Below, piece after piece: positions 286 through 7,589 of a DNA stretch of 64,000 nucleotides. The stretch lies in the sequence record NC_052661.1; one strand, given 5' to 3'. This stretch comes from Escherichia phage ukendt. The position numbers were made by a program, and so were the translations under genes. The notes beneath the pieces were generated by a model that worked only from the letters and a program-made list of their open reading frames with translations, searched no databases and had not been told where the DNA came from. The stretch's first letter is position 1, and every line of letters starts with the position of its first letter.

Positions 286-690
286 TTATTGAAGTTTAAG
301 TGAACCACGAAGACGTTTCTCTTGCTGATCACGGATATATTGTGGAACCTCGTGAATTGAATCATTACCGTGCCTATTTTCAACAACTAAAGAGATAACT
401 TGATAACCAAACTCTTCAGCAAGAGCTAGATAAGGTTTAAGTTCTTTCTCTGTGGTTGAAGTATTAGAAACAATAATCTTGTTAAGATTAGATGCCATAG
501 CATCACGAACAATACCCTGACACCATGCGTGTGCTTTACCTACATTTTCTGGCTTCCAATCGTAAACACCACTCTCTGTGTAATGATATTGATCTGCCTC
601 ACAGATAGGCCAATAACCTTCAGAAATAATTTCTGCTACTGTAGATTTACCAGCACCTGAAACGCCACGTAAAATGATAAGTTGTTTCAT
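286..690 (-). CDS. P-loop kinase (polynucleotide/nucleoside kinase-like)
   Basis: Walker A GVSGAGKST near N-terminus; 134 aa; last gene of a kinase-ligase-phosphoesterase operon. Confidence 0.6.
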   Translation of the reverse strand: MKQLIILRGVSGAGKSTVAEIISEGYWPICEADQYHYTESGVYDWKPENVGKAHAWCQGIVRDAMASNLNKIIVSNTSTTEKELKPYLALAEEFGYQVISLVVENRHGNDSIHEVPQYIRDQQEKRLRGSLKLQ

Positions 691-1623
691 TTATCCTCCA
701 AAAAAGTTTTCGATTTTTTCACGTCGCTCTTGCTGATTTAAAGCAGCCCATTGAATCTTCGTAAAATTATTTCGAATCCATTCTAACAAAGCGTAATATT
801 CTTCGTCAACCATTTGTTTGGCATTTTTTGGATTATCCCAAATCAGATCCCACTTTTTATCTCCACCGCGCATAAGAAACTTCTTAGTAAGATAGTGTGG
901 TGATTTAATTTTTAAAAGTAAGTTGAACGGATAGTTTGTTTCACGAACTACAAACCCTTCGTGTTTACAATGTTTAGACATTTCAACAACATCTGAAAAC
1001 TTAACCATTGGATGAACTTCAGGACGCTTAAATTTGGTGACAGAAGCAATTCCATCAAGAGCACCTTCAGGTAACATAAAACTTGTCCCATCAGGATTTT
1101 GAATTCTGGCACCAATTAAGTATGCACCTGGTTCTTCTTCGACAATATGCGGATCAGAAGGATCACAGATTTCAAAAAGGAAAGTTGCTTTTGCGCTCTC
1201 TGTCCATTTGATGAAATGTTCTATGTCATCACACTCTGAAACAATATGATTCTTTGCAATACTTGCAAAATCTGATTCAAGGCTTCCTGTTGTCGATACA
1301 ATAAGTTGACCTTTATATACACCTACAGAGGCCATAAAACCATTTACTTTACGAACCACATCTACAAGTTCATCCGCTGGTAGATCTGTGCCATTCTCAA
1401 AACGATTAAAAATCTTAGTGAAAGGCCAAATAACAACATTGTCATCAGCATCAACAACGATTCCGCGACATTCTAGAAGACGAGAATCAATGCTCCATAA
1501 GTTATCCCAGAAAACTTTGTTCTTATACTTAAGAACAGATAGACCAGAATACTCTCCTTCTTTATATGTTTTCTTATGAACTAAACCTTTTTCAACCAAA
1601 TCGTCGCAATTAAATTTAGTCAC
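691..1623 (-). CDS. ATP-dependent RNA ligase-like nucleotidyltransferase
   Basis: Covalent nucleotidyltransferase motifs in canonical order and spacing: RKVNGF (motif I lysine), HEGFVVRE (motif IV), LLKIKS (motif V); stop/start abut flanking genes. Confidence 0.55.
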   Translation of the reverse strand: MTKFNCDDLVEKGLVHKKTYKEGEYSGLSVLKYKNKVFWDNLWSIDSRLLECRGIVVDADDNVVIWPFTKIFNRFENGTDLPADELVDVVRKVNGFMASVGVYKGQLIVSTTGSLESDFASIAKNHIVSECDDIEHFIKWTESAKATFLFEICDPSDPHIVEEEPGAYLIGARIQNPDGTSFMLPEGALDGIASVTKFKRPEVHPMVKFSDVVEMSKHCKHEGFVVRETNYPFNLLLKIKSPHYLTKKFLMRGGDKKWDLIWDNPKNAKQMVDEEYYALLEWIRNNFTKIQWAALNQQERREKIENFFGG

Positions 1624-1624
1624 A

Positions 1625-2176
1625 TTACTCTCCTTTGATTATTTTGTGATGGTCTACAGTCACGATATCTCGTTTACTCATCATAGAAATTATCTCATCA
1701 AAATGCAAGATTTTTCCGTGTGCATCCCAACCCACATCTAACATTTTACCATAAGCTTCATCAGGGAAAGATCCGTGGGAATGCCCATGTAGCATGATTG
1801 ATCCACGACCTTGTTTATTCCAGGAGGCAATAGGGTAATGACTTAAGACGAAGAACAGCTTCTGGTATTTCACTTCGTCATAATACACCACTTCGCCATA
1901 CTCTGCAAGCACTTCTCGGTGTTTGCTGTAGTCATGGTTCCCAACACAGTAGGTGATATCTCCTTGGAGACGGGAAGCAATTTTACGGGTATCTTCTTCA
2001 GTTCCGAAACAGAAGTCGCCCAAATGCCACATCTTAACACCAGGAGTAGTAGCACATTTGTTCCATGCTTCGATCAAGGCTTCTGTCATGTGGTCCATAT
2101 CTTCCCACGGACGATATTCAGGAGCAAACTCTCGAATACGTTTATGCATAAAATGCAAATCGCTTGTAATAAACAT
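1625..2176 (-). CDS. calcineurin-like metallophosphoesterase
   Basis: DLHF, HLGDFCFG, VGNHDY and LHGHSHG motifs in the order typical of the metallophosphoesterase fold; 183 aa. Confidence 0.7.
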   Translation of the reverse strand: MFITSDLHFMHKRIREFAPEYRPWEDMDHMTEALIEAWNKCATTPGVKMWHLGDFCFGTEEDTRKIASRLQGDITYCVGNHDYSKHREVLAEYGEVVYYDEVKYQKLFFVLSHYPIASWNKQGRGSIMLHGHSHGSFPDEAYGKMLDVGWDAHGKILHFDEIISMMSKRDIVTVDHHKIIKGE

Positions 2177-2532
2177 TAGTATAATCCCTCGCTAAATAAT
2201 TCATGATCGTGACCATTACGCTCATGGTCGATCTGGTCAGCATTTTCCGCGATGATGTAAGCATCCGCACGACTCCACCAATTGTAATACTGATCGATAA
2301 AGCCTTGATTATCTGGTGTGCACAAAGTTTTGTTGATTACACCTGCTTCTTTCAACACGTTTAACTGTGCATATAGTACAGGATTTGCATGTCGAACACA
2401 AGGAATAATTAACTCTTCACCATTATTCAAAATATACTTATTTGCAGCACAGACGATAACACGTTGCGCATAATGACCCTCACCCATCCAGGTAAGAGGT
2501 TGGTAACAAATATTGTTTTCAATACCACTCAT
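2176..2532 (-). CDS. hypothetical early protein
   Basis: 118-aa ORF, start overlaps stop of downstream gene; no recognisable motif. Confidence 0.4.
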   Translation of the reverse strand: MSGIENNICYQPLTWMGEGHYAQRVIVCAANKYILNNGEELIIPCVRHANPVLYAQLNVLKEAGVINKTLCTPDNQGFIDQYYNWWSRADAYIIAENADQIDHERNGHDHELFSEGLY

Positions 2533-2691
2533 TGTTTCCTAATCCTCCTCTCTTAAGTTATCCTCGAAAAAACTAGTGTCTGGAAGTAAAAGATCATTAC
2601 TTGTGTCGGGCCAATCCTCTTCTTCTCGGTAGATAAAGTAACCTTCGTCCTCTTCTTGTTCCGACCAAACCGAATGATGCATGTTCTCTCC

Positions 2692-3048
2692 TTAATAGTG
2701 CACACGAATCATTTTAATACCATAACGCAGCATGGATTCTTTTGCAAGCATGAATTTATCCCCAGCGGCGGGATTAGAAGTATGCACGAAAATGGTAGGT
2801 GAACCAAAGCAAGGTTTACCAAACGCCAAAAGTTCTTCCAGGCGCAGGAAAACATCATACCCATCTTGGTCAGAATCTTCACCCAAATCGTTGTCAAAAT
2901 GCCACTCGTCTACAAAACGATAACCCTTCTGCACCTCGTTCATGTAGCGAGAGGCAAGAAGTTCCTGTGATGTTTTAAACCAGATTGCATCTGGACAACC
3001 ATAATCTTTTGGATCACGTAAATCATCAAGCCAAATAATAGTACCCAT
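2692..3048 (-). CDS. hypothetical early protein
   Basis: 118-aa ORF in the co-directional early block; function not recognisable. Confidence 0.4.
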   Translation of the reverse strand: MGTIIWLDDLRDPKDYGCPDAIWFKTSQELLASRYMNEVQKGYRFVDEWHFDNDLGEDSDQDGYDVFLRLEELLAFGKPCFGSPTIFVHTSNPAAGDKFMLAKESMLRYGIKMIRVHY

Positions 3049-3058
3049 ATAACCTCCT

Positions 3059-3529
3059 CTAAGCTGGCATGATTAAAAAAGAACTCTCCACTTCAAAATG
3101 CCAATCATCTACAAGCCCTGATTCCCAATCCTTCTCTTCATGGAAAGAGCAAATCCAACGGTACATACCTGGCGGTGTATTCTCAACATCTTCTGGCAAC
3201 CCATAATCCAAAGCTGTCTTACCGTTCTCGGTAAAACCAGGATGGAGATTAGGAGCTTTCAGTACAGAAACCATACCTCCAACATCTACAGCCACGATCC
3301 ACTCTGTCATGTATGGGCTGTCATATTGAGGCTCATCAGAACCTACCTCAACAGCCTCTGTGCGTAAGATGATAATAGCCTGCTCTGTGATTGGGGCTTT
3401 GACAATATACCCGTGATCCTCAAAAAGATCGATAACCTCGAACTCATCGCCGTTTTCGATACCATAGCTCTTATTCAAAGAGATAAACTTCGGGTTATCA
3501 TCGTAAGCTTTAGTTACTTTAATTTTCAT
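3059..3529 (-). CDS. hypothetical early protein
   Basis: 156-aa ORF, acidic; tightly packed with neighbours. Confidence 0.4.
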   Translation of the reverse strand: MKIKVTKAYDDNPKFISLNKSYGIENGDEFEVIDLFEDHGYIVKAPITEQAIIILRTEAVEVGSDEPQYDSPYMTEWIVAVDVGGMVSVLKAPNLHPGFTENGKTALDYGLPEDVENTPPGMYRWICSFHEEKDWESGLVDDWHFEVESSFLIMPA

Positions 3530-3750
3530 TTTTCCTCCTTCACTTTAACCTCAAATTCTACAGGCTTACCCTCAATGTAAAAACACTGATACTCTGCCTT
3601 ATCATCCTCATCACGAGGCCAAGTTACCAAGGAGTTATAGCAATCTTCTGGTGCTTTGAAGATGGTTTTAGTCTCCACAGTAACATTCCCATTAAGTGTT
3701 GCCAATACCACCCACCCAGCTACAGGGATCATAGTGCCTCCACTTTCCAC
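3526..3750 (-). CDS. hypothetical early protein
   Basis: 74-aa ORF; 4-nt start/stop overlap with neighbour. Confidence 0.35.
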   Translation of the reverse strand: MESGGTMIPVAGWVVLATLNGNVTVETKTIFKAPEDCYNSLVTWPRDEDDKAEYQCFYIEGKPVEFEVKVKEEK

Positions 3751-3911
3751 GTTTTACCCTTATCAACCAAGGTCTTTGCTACAGCATACTCCTTCCCATT
3801 AACAATGAAATAATAAACTATAAAAGATTTTCCGATTGTTACTGTCTTAGTAACCTCTACGCGTTTAACACCTTGCATGTATTTCGCCTTACCGGAATAA
3901 AGTAAAATCAT
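3729..3911 (-). CDS. hypothetical early protein
   Basis: 60-aa ORF overlapping neighbours in the operon-like packing. Confidence 0.3.
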   Translation of the reverse strand: MILLYSGKAKYMQGVKRVEVTKTVTIGKSFIVYYFIVNGKEYAVAKTLVDKGKTWKVEAL

Positions 3912-4189
3912 TTTGCATTCCTCTTATTATTGATAACATCCATAGCAGTATATGGTTTATTAGTGCCATGATACTCCAGAATCATTGGAGAGCCTTCTTG
4001 CACTACTTCAAAAATACCATAAACAGAACTTTCAGCAAATACCATTTGCTTCGTGCCTTCATCGTTTACAACGAGAGAAAACTTCTTGCCTGTCCCGTTG
4101 AGGATCTCGTATTTCTTGCCAGCAGTGAATAATCCAGAGTACCACTCGTTATCTGTTGCTTTTACACACTTCAGGAAAGTCTTGATCAT
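3908..4189 (-). CDS. hypothetical early protein
   Basis: 93-aa ORF; start/stop overlaps with flanking ORFs. Confidence 0.35.
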   Translation of the reverse strand: MIKTFLKCVKATDNEWYSGLFTAGKKYEILNGTGKKFSLVVNDEGTKQMVFAESSVYGIFEVVQEGSPMILEYHGTNKPYTAMDVINNKRNAK

Positions 4190-4539
4190 TTCTTTTTGCT
4201 CCTCTTTTTAGATTTCTCATACAAACCTAACACAGCCGCCTCTTTTGCACAAGTAGGAACTGAAGTCATTCCTCTTCGTTTTGCTTCTGGTAGTTGCAAA
4301 GTCCATATTCCCCACCAATAAATTTGGTCTGCCGTGAGTGGTTCAGCCATTGGATCTGCCTCCTGCTCCTCAAGACGTTGCAACGCTTCTTCAATCTTCT
4401 CGATTGGTGTGTCAAAGACGAATGCCTCCGTATCAAATTTATCTTTCTTAGGAACTGATTTGGCTACTTTGAGAACCTCGTTTTTCGGTTTCTTAGTAAC
4501 GTTCTTTGGCTTTGATAACTTCTTCGGTGTTTTCGCCAC
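4186..4539 (-). CDS. hypothetical Lys-rich protein (possible nucleic-acid binding)
   Basis: GTG start at 4539..4537 with GGAGG RBS 6 nt upstream; very basic N-terminus and KKRSKKK C-terminus. Confidence 0.4.
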   Translation of the reverse strand: MAKTPKKLSKPKNVTKKPKNEVLKVAKSVPKKDKFDTEAFVFDTPIEKIEEALQRLEEQEADPMAEPLTADQIYWWGIWTLQLPEAKRRGMTSVPTCAKEAAVLGLYEKSKKRSKKK

Positions 4540-4732
4540 TTACTACCTCCATACGATCTAAAAAGTCATTCACAAATCTCCAGTAACGTTGACCTGTTCT
4601 AAGATCTTCATAGATAACCACAGGATCAAACACTTTAGATATTCCGGCAGGTTTTGGAAATTCCACTACCGTATATAAACCACCTTTTGCTACACAAGAA
4701 TAGGTTACGCCTGTAATTGGATAGTTGCTCAT
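4493..4732 (-). CDS. hypothetical early protein
   Basis: 79-aa ORF. Confidence 0.35.
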   Translation of the reverse strand: MSNYPITGVTYSCVAKGGLYTVVEFPKPAGISKVFDPVVIYEDLRTGQRYWRFVNDFLDRMEVVSGENTEEVIKAKERY

Positions 4733-4923
4733 TTCTTTACGTACTCCATGATTGGGGTATGGTCGCCAGTAAGTGTAACACGGCTGTAGGACACATCTTG
4801 TGTCTTCAGTGTATCAATCCACTCTAAGAAGTGTTCTTTCGCTTCTGTGTAGTTCTGTGTGCCTTTAACAACGTGTATACCATCTAGAGTTACACGGAAT
4901 ACCATTTGAATAACGTCTTTCAT
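4729..4923 (-). CDS. hypothetical early protein
   Basis: 64-aa ORF; 4-nt overlaps with both neighbours. Confidence 0.35.
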   Translation of the reverse strand: MKDVIQMVFRVTLDGIHVVKGTQNYTEAKEHFLEWIDTLKTQDVSYSRVTLTGDHTPIMEYVKK

Positions 4924-5117
4924 TTCTTACCTCCTTTGTTGTCAAAATAACTTACCAGAACATCGTGAACCACACACATGGCAAAAATCAGAACAATTGT
5001 TGTCAGGACTGGATTCTCACTAATTAGTGCTATCATCTTTAACCACCTCCAATTGCCTTTCGAGTTTGACTTTGTTTGAGAACTGATAATGACACAACTT
5101 ACATTGCATGTCAACAA
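4920..5117 (-). CDS. hypothetical small membrane protein (true start probably the internal ATG at 5036)
   Basis: Hydrophobic stretch VLTTIVLIFAMCVVHDVLV; track ORF overlaps upstream gene by ~98 nt, the internal Met reduces this to 17 nt. Confidence 0.25.
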   Translation of the reverse strand: MLTCNVSCVIISSQTKSNSKGNWRWLKMIALISENPVLTTIVLIFAMCVVHDVLVSYFDNKGGKK

Positions 5118-5343
5118 TCTGATCGTGATTTAACCCTACAATTTTAACTTCCTTTGCACCATCCCATTCCAAATACTCAAAGCCATCCAAATGATTACTC
5201 TTGTCCAACAGGAATGCTATCTGCTGCCATTCAATCTGAATATCATTTAAATGATATGCTGCACAGAAGATATCCTCATAGTAAAAGACGACCATTGTCA
5301 TTGCTTCGTCCAGTACAACTACCTCTTGTCTTGTAAATCTCAT
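5020..5343 (-). CDS. hypothetical early protein (first gene of the minus-strand block)
   Basis: 107-aa ORF directly downstream of the divergent control region. Confidence 0.4.
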   Translation of the reverse strand: MRFTRQEVVVLDEAMTMVVFYYEDIFCAAYHLNDIQIEWQQIAFLLDKSNHLDGFEYLEWDGAKEVKIVGLNHDQIVDMQCKLCHYQFSNKVKLERQLEVVKDDSTN

Positions 5344-5598
5344 TCTAGCCTCCTAAACGCGTCTCTGACGCACTTTTTATATATAAGATGATAAATCACC
5401 TTACCTAGTAAGTAAACTTGCTCTACGAGCCTCTTATGAAGCTTATGTTATAGGCTATACTATTGCTACCTGTTTAAGCAAGGTTTTTGCACACAGAAAA
5501 TAATTTTTAATAAAACTCTTGACTTTTGTGTTCGAAGTATGCTACCCTAGAAATCTATTAACGAGCGAAGCGAGTTAAGGTTTTAGGTTGTTGATGTA

Positions 5599-5630
5599 GT
5601 ACTCTGTACTCAAGTACTGTACTCCGTACT
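5599..5630. repeat. five closely spaced GTACT repeats
   Basis: GTACT at 5599, 5606, 5614, 5619 and 5626; further GTAC-containing motifs at 5681..5716. Confidence 0.6.
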
Positions 5631-5766
5631 AGATTAATAATTATTAAATATTAATAATAAATAATTATTAGATCTAACAAACAGGTACAGTGTATCAGAA
5701 CTGGTACGTACAGATCAACTTCTATCAATTAAAAAATAAAATAATAAATTATTATAAATAATACTT

Positions 5767-5778
5767 GATCTATAGATC
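5767..5778. repeat. perfect 12-bp palindrome GATCTATAGATC
   Basis: Read directly from sequence; 48 bp upstream of the first plus-strand ORF. Confidence 0.6.
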
Positions 5779-5825
5779 AGTATGAAGTATAGTACGGAAC
5801 ATCTTAACAAGAATGGAGGTGTGCA

Positions 5826-6011
5826 ATGATTAGTGAGAATCCGTGCAAATGGCATCATGTGCCTATTAAAGATTGTATGTCTTGTAATCCACGTTCTATT
5901 TATAACATTGCATCTTATGATGATGACAATGTGTTAGACGATGATGAAGGCTGGGAGGATTTAGATTGGACTGGTTATGAAACCAAAAAGGATAAAATTA
6001 TTCCTAGTTGA
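5826..6011 (+). CDS. hypothetical small acidic Cys-containing protein
   Basis: ATG preceded by GGAGG RBS; 61 aa. Confidence 0.4.
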   Translation: MISENPCKWHHVPIKDCMSCNPRSIYNIASYDDDNVLDDDEGWEDLDWTGYETKKDKIIPS

Positions 6012-6048: not shown

Positions 6049-6300
6049 ATGCCGATCACTCCCCATTTGGGGTTCGAAGGATATATGCAAAATAGCTTTT
6101 ATTTTAGGTGCCGTGCTTGTAATAGGCATTTGACAAACCACTCCAGACGTGATAAAAATGGAGTCATCAAGGAATCAGACCTCTGTTCTATTTGCACAGG
6201 TTTGGCTTTTGATGATAGTCCCGAAAGGGTTTATCAGCATCAATGTATAACAGACGTTCTCGTGTCAAACTTGGTAGAGGACGAACAACTAACAGATTAG
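6049..6300 (+). CDS. hypothetical zinc-ribbon-like protein
   Basis: CRAC...CSIC cysteine pairs; possible alternative start at ATG 6085 with better RBS spacing. Confidence 0.35.
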   Translation: MPITPHLGFEGYMQNSFYFRCRACNRHLTNHSRRDKNGVIKESDLCSICTGLAFDDSPERVYQHQCITDVLVSNLVEDEQLTD

Positions 6301-6308
6301 GAGGAACA

Positions 6309-6557
6309 ATGTCTCTATTAGAAAAACACGTGTTTGAAGATGGTAACGGCAATGCAGTTTTTCTTTTCCATCCAGAAAAATACACATCTGAAAACAATGG
6401 TACAACTTCTATTGTAATCACTAAAGATGTTAAAGTTATTGATTTCTTGGCTCTGATGCGAGAGATGGATCTTGAAATTAATACTTTTAACGCAGAAGCT
6501 TTGGTTGTTGCTCTTCTGGAAAAGAAAGATAGTGAAGAAGTAGCAGAATATGCTTAA
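6309..6557 (+). CDS. hypothetical protein (start refined from track start 6243)
   Basis: ATG 6309 preceded by AGGAGG RBS; followed by a 10-bp-stem hairpin at 6571..6598. Confidence 0.45.
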   Translation: MSLLEKHVFEDGNGNAVFLFHPEKYTSENNGTTSIVITKDVKVIDFLALMREMDLEINTFNAEALVVALLEKKDSEEVAEYA

Positions 6558-7501: not shown

Positions 7502-7589
7502 GGTGAGTTAATTCCGTAGGGGTAGCGGGGCAGACTGTAAATCTGTTATCATTGCGATTCGGGTGGTTCGACTCCATCACTCACCACCA
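7502..7589 (+). tRNA. tRNA-Tyr (anticodon GTA), type II, with atypical 5' region
   Basis: Acceptor GGTGAGT/ACTCACC perfect, anticodon arm GCAGA-CTGTAAA-TCTGT, A73, CCA; junction between acceptor and D-arm is longer than canonical. Confidence 0.5.

Follow-up and report, generated by a model that had tools for sequence, protein, structure and literature searches.

The array of small genes at positions 2176-5343 of the window (the whole 64,000-nucleotide stretch of the Escherichia phage ukendt record NC_052661.1 that was analyzed) is probably the promoter-proximal part of one long leftward transcription unit; the array itself appears functionally heterogeneous, its downstream end lying in an RNA-repair module. 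The initial annotation, made from the sequence alone, had drawn a sharp border between these open reading frames (ORFs), described as of unknown function and devoid of any motif recognizable by eye, and an RNA-repair cassette beyond them. That border is not supported, since g10 (2692-3048) encodes a member of the cREC family, and profile searches also recovered T4_Y16D/Arn.3 and DUF8046 in other genes, together with a distant link to DUF1653. Because cREC is a repair-associated family and g10 is contiguous with repair genes, the RNA-repair cassette extends into the block, and the gain is one of annotation, the start of the RNA-repair module moving from 2176 to 3048 at the least. We infer the operon structure, the timing of expression and all the biochemical activities of this proposal, and build them on genes whose reality, family memberships and synteny are observed. 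The genes at the downstream end of the array, and those that follow them, are these:

2692-3048, minus strand: g10, 118 residues, cREC_REC (Pfam PF20274), a predicted metal-independent cyclic phosphodiesterase
2539-2682, minus strand: g11, 47 residues, highly acidic (17 D/E, pI 4.1); phrog_18323 (E = 9e-35)
2176-2532, minus strand: g12, 118 residues, a homolog of T4 Arn.3 (Pfam PF26092, T4_Y16D), not of Arn itself
1625-2176, minus strand: calcineurin-like metallophosphoesterase, a candidate for RNA 3'-end healing
691-1623, minus strand: RNA ligase of the T4 Rnl1 type
286-690, minus strand: P-loop kinase of 134 residues, a candidate polynucleotide 5'-kinase

The match of g10 to PF20274 stands well above the family threshold (50.5 bits against 27; E = 3.4e-13), with residues 4-100 aligned on model positions 2-83 of 88, and the same family is also precomputed on g10 orthologs. 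Residues D8 and D9, D52/D54, T90 and S91, and K98/K103 are invariant in six g10 orthologs, down to 48% identity; placed on receiver-domain positions by inspection, they fit the receiver-type DD...D...T/S...K pattern. The cREC family was defined computationally, is predicted to act in a metal-independent manner on 2',3'-cyclic RNA ends or on cyclic ADP-ribose derivatives, and has been reported solely in RNA-repair and NAD/ADP-ribose contexts (PMC7824862, PMC9503650). By tblastn, we found cREC in 342 phage records, where it frequently abuts an RNA ligase, and orthologs of g10 adjoin, or sit at most three genes from, the Rnl1, kinase and phosphoesterase genes in this window, phi92, KP2025, K54_rec3 and PVP-SE1. 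In the Vequintavirinae-like Klebsiella phage K54_rec3, the kinase and RNA ligase genes directly flank cREC, and a Sir2 gene lies beside the kinase. Within Phapecoctavirus, the genus of the present phage, cREC exists as two alleles of 118 and 114 residues that share about 80% protein identity (2692-3048 in the window, 3693-4037 in locus L002 and 3193-3537 in locus L013 of phAPEC8), between flanking genes that are 97-100% identical, which indicates a local recombinational exchange of this single gene. The public name "RNA ligase and tail attachment protein" sometimes carried by the cREC gene is an unsupported label that looks like a propagated error.

Each of the three neighbors of the array has two family matches. 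The phosphoesterase matches phrog_547 "phosphoesterase" (E = 9e-56) and, just below threshold, Metallophos_2 (24.3 bits against 27; E = 3.4e-5); the ligase matches PF09511 RNA_lig_T4_1 (E = 3.8e-15) and phrog_562 (E = 2e-70); and the kinase matches AAA_33 (E = 2.7e-10) and phrog_505 "polynucleotide kinase" (E = 8e-8). The arrangement resembles the cREC-containing RNA-repair neighborhoods that Iyer, Burroughs, Aravind and colleagues described in phages, with Escherichia phage V5 and Proteus phage Mydo as prototypes (PMC7824862, PMC9503650). Common to both are a stand-alone cREC adjoining a ligase like T4 Rnl1, a candidate P-loop kinase of nucleotides or polynucleotides and a candidate phosphoesterase of the calcineurin type, and a phage that is an enterobacterial myophage of medium size with tRNAs of its own. 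Unlike in those neighborhoods, however, no sirtuin or MazG gene is present in the neighborhood of this phage, two extra genes, for the acidic 47-residue peptide and the Arn.3 homolog, separate cREC from the phosphoesterase, and some members of Phapecoctavirus are without the ligase and the kinase in this stretch.

Our working hypothesis is that the leftward unit would run on from the array into the phosphoesterase, Rnl1 RNA ligase, P-loop kinase and DNA ligase genes. Where a metal-independent anticodon nuclease has cut and a 2',3'-cyclic phosphate has formed, the cREC protein would open the ring; removal of the phosphate that is left would fall to the metallophosphoesterase, phosphorylation of the 5'-OH to the kinase and sealing to Rnl1, with the outcome that host tRNAs and the 10-11 tRNAs of the phage itself would be protected. 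The genes g11 and g12 sit wedged between cREC and the phosphoesterase, and under this hypothesis the eight upstream genes would encode small accessory proteins without detectable catalytic motifs, mostly restricted to Stephanstirmvirinae and relatives, which are most plausibly host-interaction factors, the gene set varying between genera. In T4, Pnkp and Rnl1 form a tRNA repair pathway against the PrrC anticodon nuclease. The likeness to that system lies in the combination of a putative 5'-kinase, a putative 3'-end healing activity and an Rnl1-type ligase, the last being a PF09511 member here; whereas the healing activities of T4 are joined in the kinase-HAD phosphatase fusion Pnkp, they appear, judging from sequence, to be split here between the 134-residue kinase, the metallophosphoesterase and cREC.

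The phage belongs to Phapecoctavirus (Stephanstirmvirinae) and is a phAPEC8-like E. coli myophage, with Mt1B1_P17 as its best match (98.6% over 3.6 kb). A megablast of positions 2000-5600 against the phage collection matched 125 records, 64 of them covering at least 80% of the query, and the remaining close matches are likewise Phapecoctavirus, E. coli myophages of roughly 150 kb. According to the ORF listing, positions 2176-5343 hold an unbroken co-directional array of 12 minus-strand genes encoding 38-156 residues, and the same gene calls are found in the public annotations of Mt1B1_P17, ESCO37 and phAPEC8. The genes upstream of g10 are listed below.

5020-5343, minus strand: g1, 107 residues, acidic, first of the array; phrog_14390 (E = 2e-60)
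4920-5036, minus strand: g2, 38 residues, ATG start, GGAGG site, one hydrophobic segment; the weakest gene call
4729-4923, minus strand: g3, 64 residues; phrog_15683 (E = 9e-43); dN/dS 0.05-0.08; 48% identity in phi92
4493-4732, minus strand: g4, 79 residues, a widespread small domain family, apparently a distant relative of DUF1653
4186-4539, minus strand: g5, 117 residues, Lys-rich; basic low-complexity N- and C-terminal tails around a conserved core of about 75 residues
3908-4189, minus strand: g6, 93 residues; phrog_10169 (E = 3e-42) and weaker PHROG matches
3729-3911, minus strand: g7, 60 residues, basic; phrog_15376 (E = 2e-40); 74% identity in phi92; dN/dS 0.05-0.09
3526-3732, minus strand: g8, 68 residues, acidic, Phapecoctavirus-specific; phrog_15821 (E = 6e-36); dN/dS 0.07
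3059-3529, minus strand: g9, 156 residues, DUF8046 (PF26219) in the C-terminal two thirds

Consecutive genes overlap by 4 nt at seven junctions and by 17 and 47 nt at two others, the three remaining junctions being gaps of 6-10 nt, and a GGAG-type or similar purine-rich ribosome-binding site precedes 11 of the 12 genes, the exception being g4. Ratios of nonsynonymous to synonymous substitution rates (dN/dS; Nei-Gojobori estimates, window versus phAPEC8, phiWec188 and phi92) are 0.05-0.14 against phiWec188 for g1, g3-g9 and g12 and 0.25 for g10. A comparison of gene presence and absence across eight loci showed that nine of the genes (g1, g3-g7 and g10-g12) are kept in phi92, a Justusliebigvirus, at 42-83% amino acid identity, that g2, g8 and g9 are confined to Phapecoctavirus and missing in phi92, and that a Vequintavirinae-like Klebsiella phage shares only g5 and g10. 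The gene set is plastic, with extra genes inserted in KP2025 and an HNH endonuclease in tuntematon. We conclude that all 12 ORFs, except possibly the 38-residue g2, are real protein-coding genes under purifying selection.

The initial annotation was therefore right that a block of small co-directional ORFs exists, as the overlaps, the ribosome-binding sites and the dN/dS of 0.05-0.25 in 10 of the 12 genes attest, and right to place it between an AT-rich strand switch (5344-5825) and the phosphoesterase, RNA ligase and kinase genes; its count of about eleven ORFs of 60-156 residues has to be amended, two of the 12 genes encoding fewer than 60 residues. It had also named a lack of conservation in relatives as an argument against the block, an argument that falls away because the ORFs are conserved in related phages, 9 of the 12 being present in phi92, with low dN/dS. 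Scans of all 12 proteins with Pfam, NCBIfam and PADLOC gave nothing above threshold except cREC, an all-against-all phmmer comparison revealed no paralogy among them, and no Rfam RNA family was detected inside the block. On the strength of sequence comparison, four genes can be assigned (g10, g12 and g9) or loosely linked (g4) to protein families; searches of the PDB with single sequences (g12, g10 and g9) and with profiles (g12 and g4) returned nothing meaningful.

The last gene of the array, g12, is 45.5% identical to T4 Arn.3 (E = 2e-20 by tblastn), and PF26092 is found on all 120 g12 homologs listed as well as on the 118-residue gene at the same position of near-identical Logan contigs. 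The Arn.3 family is present in 1,524 of 50,697 phage records (tblastn), or about 3%. Its motifs IVCAAN, RH, QGFID, R..A..IA and the C-terminal ELFSExLY are all held by g12, and 12 columns are invariant over 41 family sequences, including R47-H48, Q76-G77-F78, R88, S114 and the C-terminal Y118. The predicted model of g12 is confident (predicted local distance difference test [pLDDT], 94) and has no match in the PDB by fold, in line with the single-sequence and profile searches; its Foldseek relatives among viral models are all uncharacterized, no additional Pfam domain occurs in the longer Arn.3-family proteins, and our literature searches found no paper citing PF26092. Owing to the 12 invariant residues and a confident predicted fold without PDB neighbor, g12 looks like an enzyme or a ligand binder.

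The order of the T4/T2 operon is arn.4-arn.3-arn.2-arn.1-arn, and g12 shares the invariant residues of Arn.3. In contrast to that operon, the neighbors of g12 are RNA-repair genes and no other arn gene lies beside it; moreover, T4 Arn.3 has an N-terminal extension of about 40 residues (152 residues against 118 for g12). According to a preprint on T2, arn.1-arn.4 have no known function and the operon is an abundantly transcribed "first middle" cluster (bioRxiv 10.64898/2026.06.19.733364). At the T4 locus, the ORF matched by g12 is that of Arn.3, and Arn, the McrBC inhibitor encoded two genes downstream, is unmatched, so the public label "anti-restriction nuclease" on g12 was apparently transferred from the name of the locus. 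We see a slim chance that g12 is an enzyme or ligand binder of unsolved fold whose position reflects a role in the processing of RNA ends or of nucleotide-derived immune signals, with the 47-residue acidic protein as its partner; if true, this would give a function to a family that about 3% of sequenced phage genomes carry, T4 among them. The Arn.3 family is in our view the only item here that may repay experiments, as it is widespread and combines enzyme-like invariant residues with a confident model lacking any structural neighbor.

Several points weigh against an RNA-repair module that reaches into a single transcribed array. The activity of cREC is a prediction for the whole family, no member of which has been characterized biochemically (PMC9503650). 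Both phAPEC8 and phiWec188 keep cREC and the Arn.3 homolog without Rnl1 and the kinase in the syntenic stretch, and cREC therefore need not depend on the ligase. (The syntenic stretches are 2345-2677 of L013 for phAPEC8 and 1797-2677 of L011 for phiWec188, and the phosphoesterase of phAPEC8 is a 62-residue remnant.) A link between Arn.3 and RNA repair was sought in T4-like phages, Ackermannviridae, a jumbo Erwinia phage, an Aeromonas phage and a metagenomic contig, and none was found: Arn.3 neighborhoods vary by lineage (topoisomerase/Macro/DexA; MazG; ribonucleotide reductase with tRNAs; polyphosphate kinase) and hold no RNA ligase. The position of g12 beside the repair genes may thus be incidental, and it is no evidence of a shared function. 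Finally, promoter-like sites proved no commoner than in shuffled sequence, and our literature searches turned up neither transcript, proteome or phenotype data on the genus nor any transcriptomic or functional work on the block.

The persistence of cREC and Arn.3 in phAPEC8 and phiWec188 without Rnl1 and the kinase in the syntenic stretch would suit another function, in which cREC, perhaps together with g11 and g12, degrades small molecules with a cyclic phosphate or derived from ADP-ribose (for example, ADPr>p, cADPR-like signals or 2',3'-cNMPs) and serves counter-signaling or NAD salvage instead of RNA repair. Such compounds are the alternative substrate class offered by the authors who defined cREC (PMC7824862, PMC9503650), and this function would also accord with the ribose-phosphate pyrophosphokinase/nicotinamide phosphoribosyltransferase pair on the divergent arm of phi92, KP2025 and K54_rec3, with the Sir2 gene of K54_rec3 and with an Ackermannviridae Arn.3 homolog located two genes from an ADP-ribose-binding (Macro) protein. 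We nevertheless hold it to be unlikely, given that the right arm in this window carries tRNAs and structural genes and not the NAD genes, that no Sir2 or KptA gene is nearby and that cREC adjoins the ligase in most lineages. Somewhat unlikely, too, is that the whole block, as a unit distinct from the RNA-repair genes, forms an early cassette for host takeover and anti-defence. The block is promoter proximal and beside the strand switch, its proteins are small, lineage restricted and variable in content, and the T4 homolog of g12 belongs to the arn operon, whose last gene product Arn inhibits McrBC and whose other products are suspected of counter-defence (bioRxiv 10.64898/2026.06.19.733364); in addition, weak structural matches put the fold of g12 inside "large polyvalent proteins" (E 0.02-0.04), and the g4-like domain is fused to Lar restriction-alleviation domains in two proteins, P0273 and P0303. 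Against such a cassette, cREC is of a repair-associated family and contiguous with repair genes, and none of the proteins encoded in the block has a match among PADLOC models or among anti-defence proteins of solved structure.

Product names used in several GenBank records would make g12 an anti-restriction nuclease or an Arn-type McrBC inhibitor and g5 a transposase-like protein. We find these names hardly credible: Arn is not the T4 protein matched by g12, and neither a transposase or integrase domain nor such a fold was found for g5. The smallest ORFs, above all the 38-residue g2 and perhaps the 47-residue g11, might alternatively be untranslated spacers that are open by chance or by overlap constraint. 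The dN/dS of g2 is 0.43-0.67, on very few changes and sites, and g2 is missing both in phi92 and among the gene calls on Logan contigs; for g11, identity drops to 26% in phiWec188 (dN/dS 0.73), where the gene is effectively replaced or diverged. However, g2 and g11 both have an ATG, good ribosome-binding sites and PHROG families of their own, g11 is 76% identical in phi92, across the genus boundary, and the informative sites are too few to reject selection, all of which leaves the spacer explanation distinctly unlikely. A functionally heterogeneous block, part of a leftward unit and with its downstream end in an RNA-repair module, is the reading that we retain as probable.

Among the other genes, g4 belongs to a family of 55 representative clusters (exhaustive HMMER search, E ≤ 1e-3), many of which are the C-terminal domain of larger proteins, with the consensus YTC.GKGG.Y...GAG...VVY.D..TG..Y.RT..DF..RME. 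It scores 13.4 bits against DUF1653 (PF07866; threshold 23.5; E = 0.1), and 16 of 28 g4 homologs give sub-threshold DUF1653 matches (E ≤ 1; best, 1.7e-4), which indicates a relationship that would be distant only. The dN/dS of g4 is 0.10-0.13. In P0273 and P0303, of 441 and 534 residues, the g4-like domain forms the C terminus and the Lar domain the N terminus, a fusion that possibly hints at a conflict-related role. We discounted two further matches of the g4 search, one to a beta-propeller protein and one to a SpaA-repeat protein, both being beta-rich and probably false positives, and the g4 profile retrieved nothing meaningful from the PDB. For g9, precomputed matches to PF26219 exist for the identical protein and for each of the 67 homologs, and phrog_4953 matches residues 58-155. 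The homologs found are all at least 74% identical, g9 being specific to Phapecoctavirus and absent from phi92, with a dN/dS of 0.05-0.14 and no PDB sequence match. The NCBI name "Integron-associated effector binding protein" given to one g9 homolog was not reproduced with Pfam, even at E ≤ 10.

The Lys-rich protein that the initial annotation had singled out at 4186-4539 (g5) is indeed basic (26 K+R among its 117 residues; pI 9.6). It belongs to a narrow family of 61 proteins, with identities of 60% or more, in which a variable, K/P/T-rich N-terminal tail is followed by a conserved core of about 75 residues and a basic C-terminal tail. The tails of g5 are disordered and its core is small and helical, and nucleic acid binding is a reasonable guess, made from composition only. 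The small hydrophobic protein also reported earlier does have a transmembrane (TM)-like segment, with a Kyte-Doolittle 19-residue maximum of 2.45, the sole TM-like value in the block, but its extent needs correction: the 65-residue reading at 4920-5117 uses a TTG start 98 nt inside g1, and the 38-residue, ATG-initiated g2 at 4920-5036 fits better. The family phrog_26968, itself 38 residues long, matches g2 at E = 1e-31.

Six genes (g1, g3, g6, g7, g8 and g11) match only PHROG families of no known function and had no Pfam, NCBIfam, PADLOC or PDB match. As checked for g1 and g6, these orphans are restricted to some 120-130 Stephanstirmvirinae-type records: g1 occurs in 131 phage records, all Stephanstirmvirinae-like (dN/dS 0.06), and g6 in 121, from Stephanstirmvirinae (dN/dS 0.04-0.13). 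The Phapecoctavirus-specific g8 is absent from phi92, KP2025 and K54_rec3.

On its right side, the array is bordered by the following features:

5344-5825: strand-switch region, AT-rich and intergenic, separating the leftward array from the small ORFs, tRNAs and late genes that run rightward
5826-6011, 6049-6300 and 6309-6557, plus strand: three small ORFs, hypothetical in relatives, no Pfam match

The switch region has a GC content of 0.31-0.33, and relatives annotate no ORF there. One sigma-70-like site lies on the minus strand at 5416-5388, 45 nt upstream of g1; no terminator-like site was found on the minus strand from 5343 to 286, in a promoter/terminator scan that performed no better than on shuffled sequence. 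To the right of the three small ORFs come 10 tRNAs with one tRNA-like element, followed by genes for terminase, portal, protease and major capsid protein, the tRNA cluster (10-11 genes) being 1.5 kb from the block and on the other strand. With plus-strand tRNA and late genes on its right, the switch therefore divides a leftward metabolic/accessory arm from a tRNA and late arm. The block may be expressed early. Large virulent phages have early accessory-gene arrays, for instance the small immediate-early ORFs of T4 and the pre-early region of T5. Features shared with them are many small, translationally coupled, lineage-restricted ORFs beside the promoter region and a gene content that differs between relatives.

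The cumulative GC skew reaches its minimum at 5250-5750, its sign flipping exactly at the strand switch, and AT-rich palindromes lie at 5633-5670; transcription could be driving the skew, or the site could be related to replication. The arm on the right-hand side of the switch opens, in phi92 and in the Klebsiella relatives, with the ribose-phosphate pyrophosphokinase and nicotinamide phosphoribosyltransferase pair (7072-9770 in L006, phi92; 8090-10914 in L012, KP2025; 9848-10296 in L007), a position occupied in this window by small ORFs, tRNAs and then terminase. The eleventh tRNA-like element, at 7502-7586 on the plus strand, scores 39 bits with the Rfam tRNA model and is not called by ARAGORN; Mt1B1_P17 annotates it as a pseudo-tRNA with anticodon GTA.

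Overall, the block is real but ordinary: its genes are already public at 97-100% identity for dozens of Phapecoctavirus genomes, all of its ORFs have PHROG families, and the cREC/ligase/kinase/phosphoesterase neighborhood is already in print. The labels "anti-restriction nuclease", "transposase-like protein" and "RNA ligase and tail attachment protein" are unsupported and are spreading in public records. Further names look like propagated errors, namely "anti-restriction nuclease" on Arn.4 homologs as well, "flagellar motor protein" on T4 MotA, and "DNA polymerase I" on a 108-residue ORF to the left of the kinase. Records named "Campylobacter phage" (host Campylobacter jejuni; MG065650, MG065639, MG065661, MG065672 and MG065689) also match the block or its proteins. 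One of them, B15 (MG065650), is 97% identical over the block, and the others share only 42-53% protein identity, as do Justusliebigvirus-like and Vequintavirinae-like phages; the Campylobacter host label is therefore doubtful.

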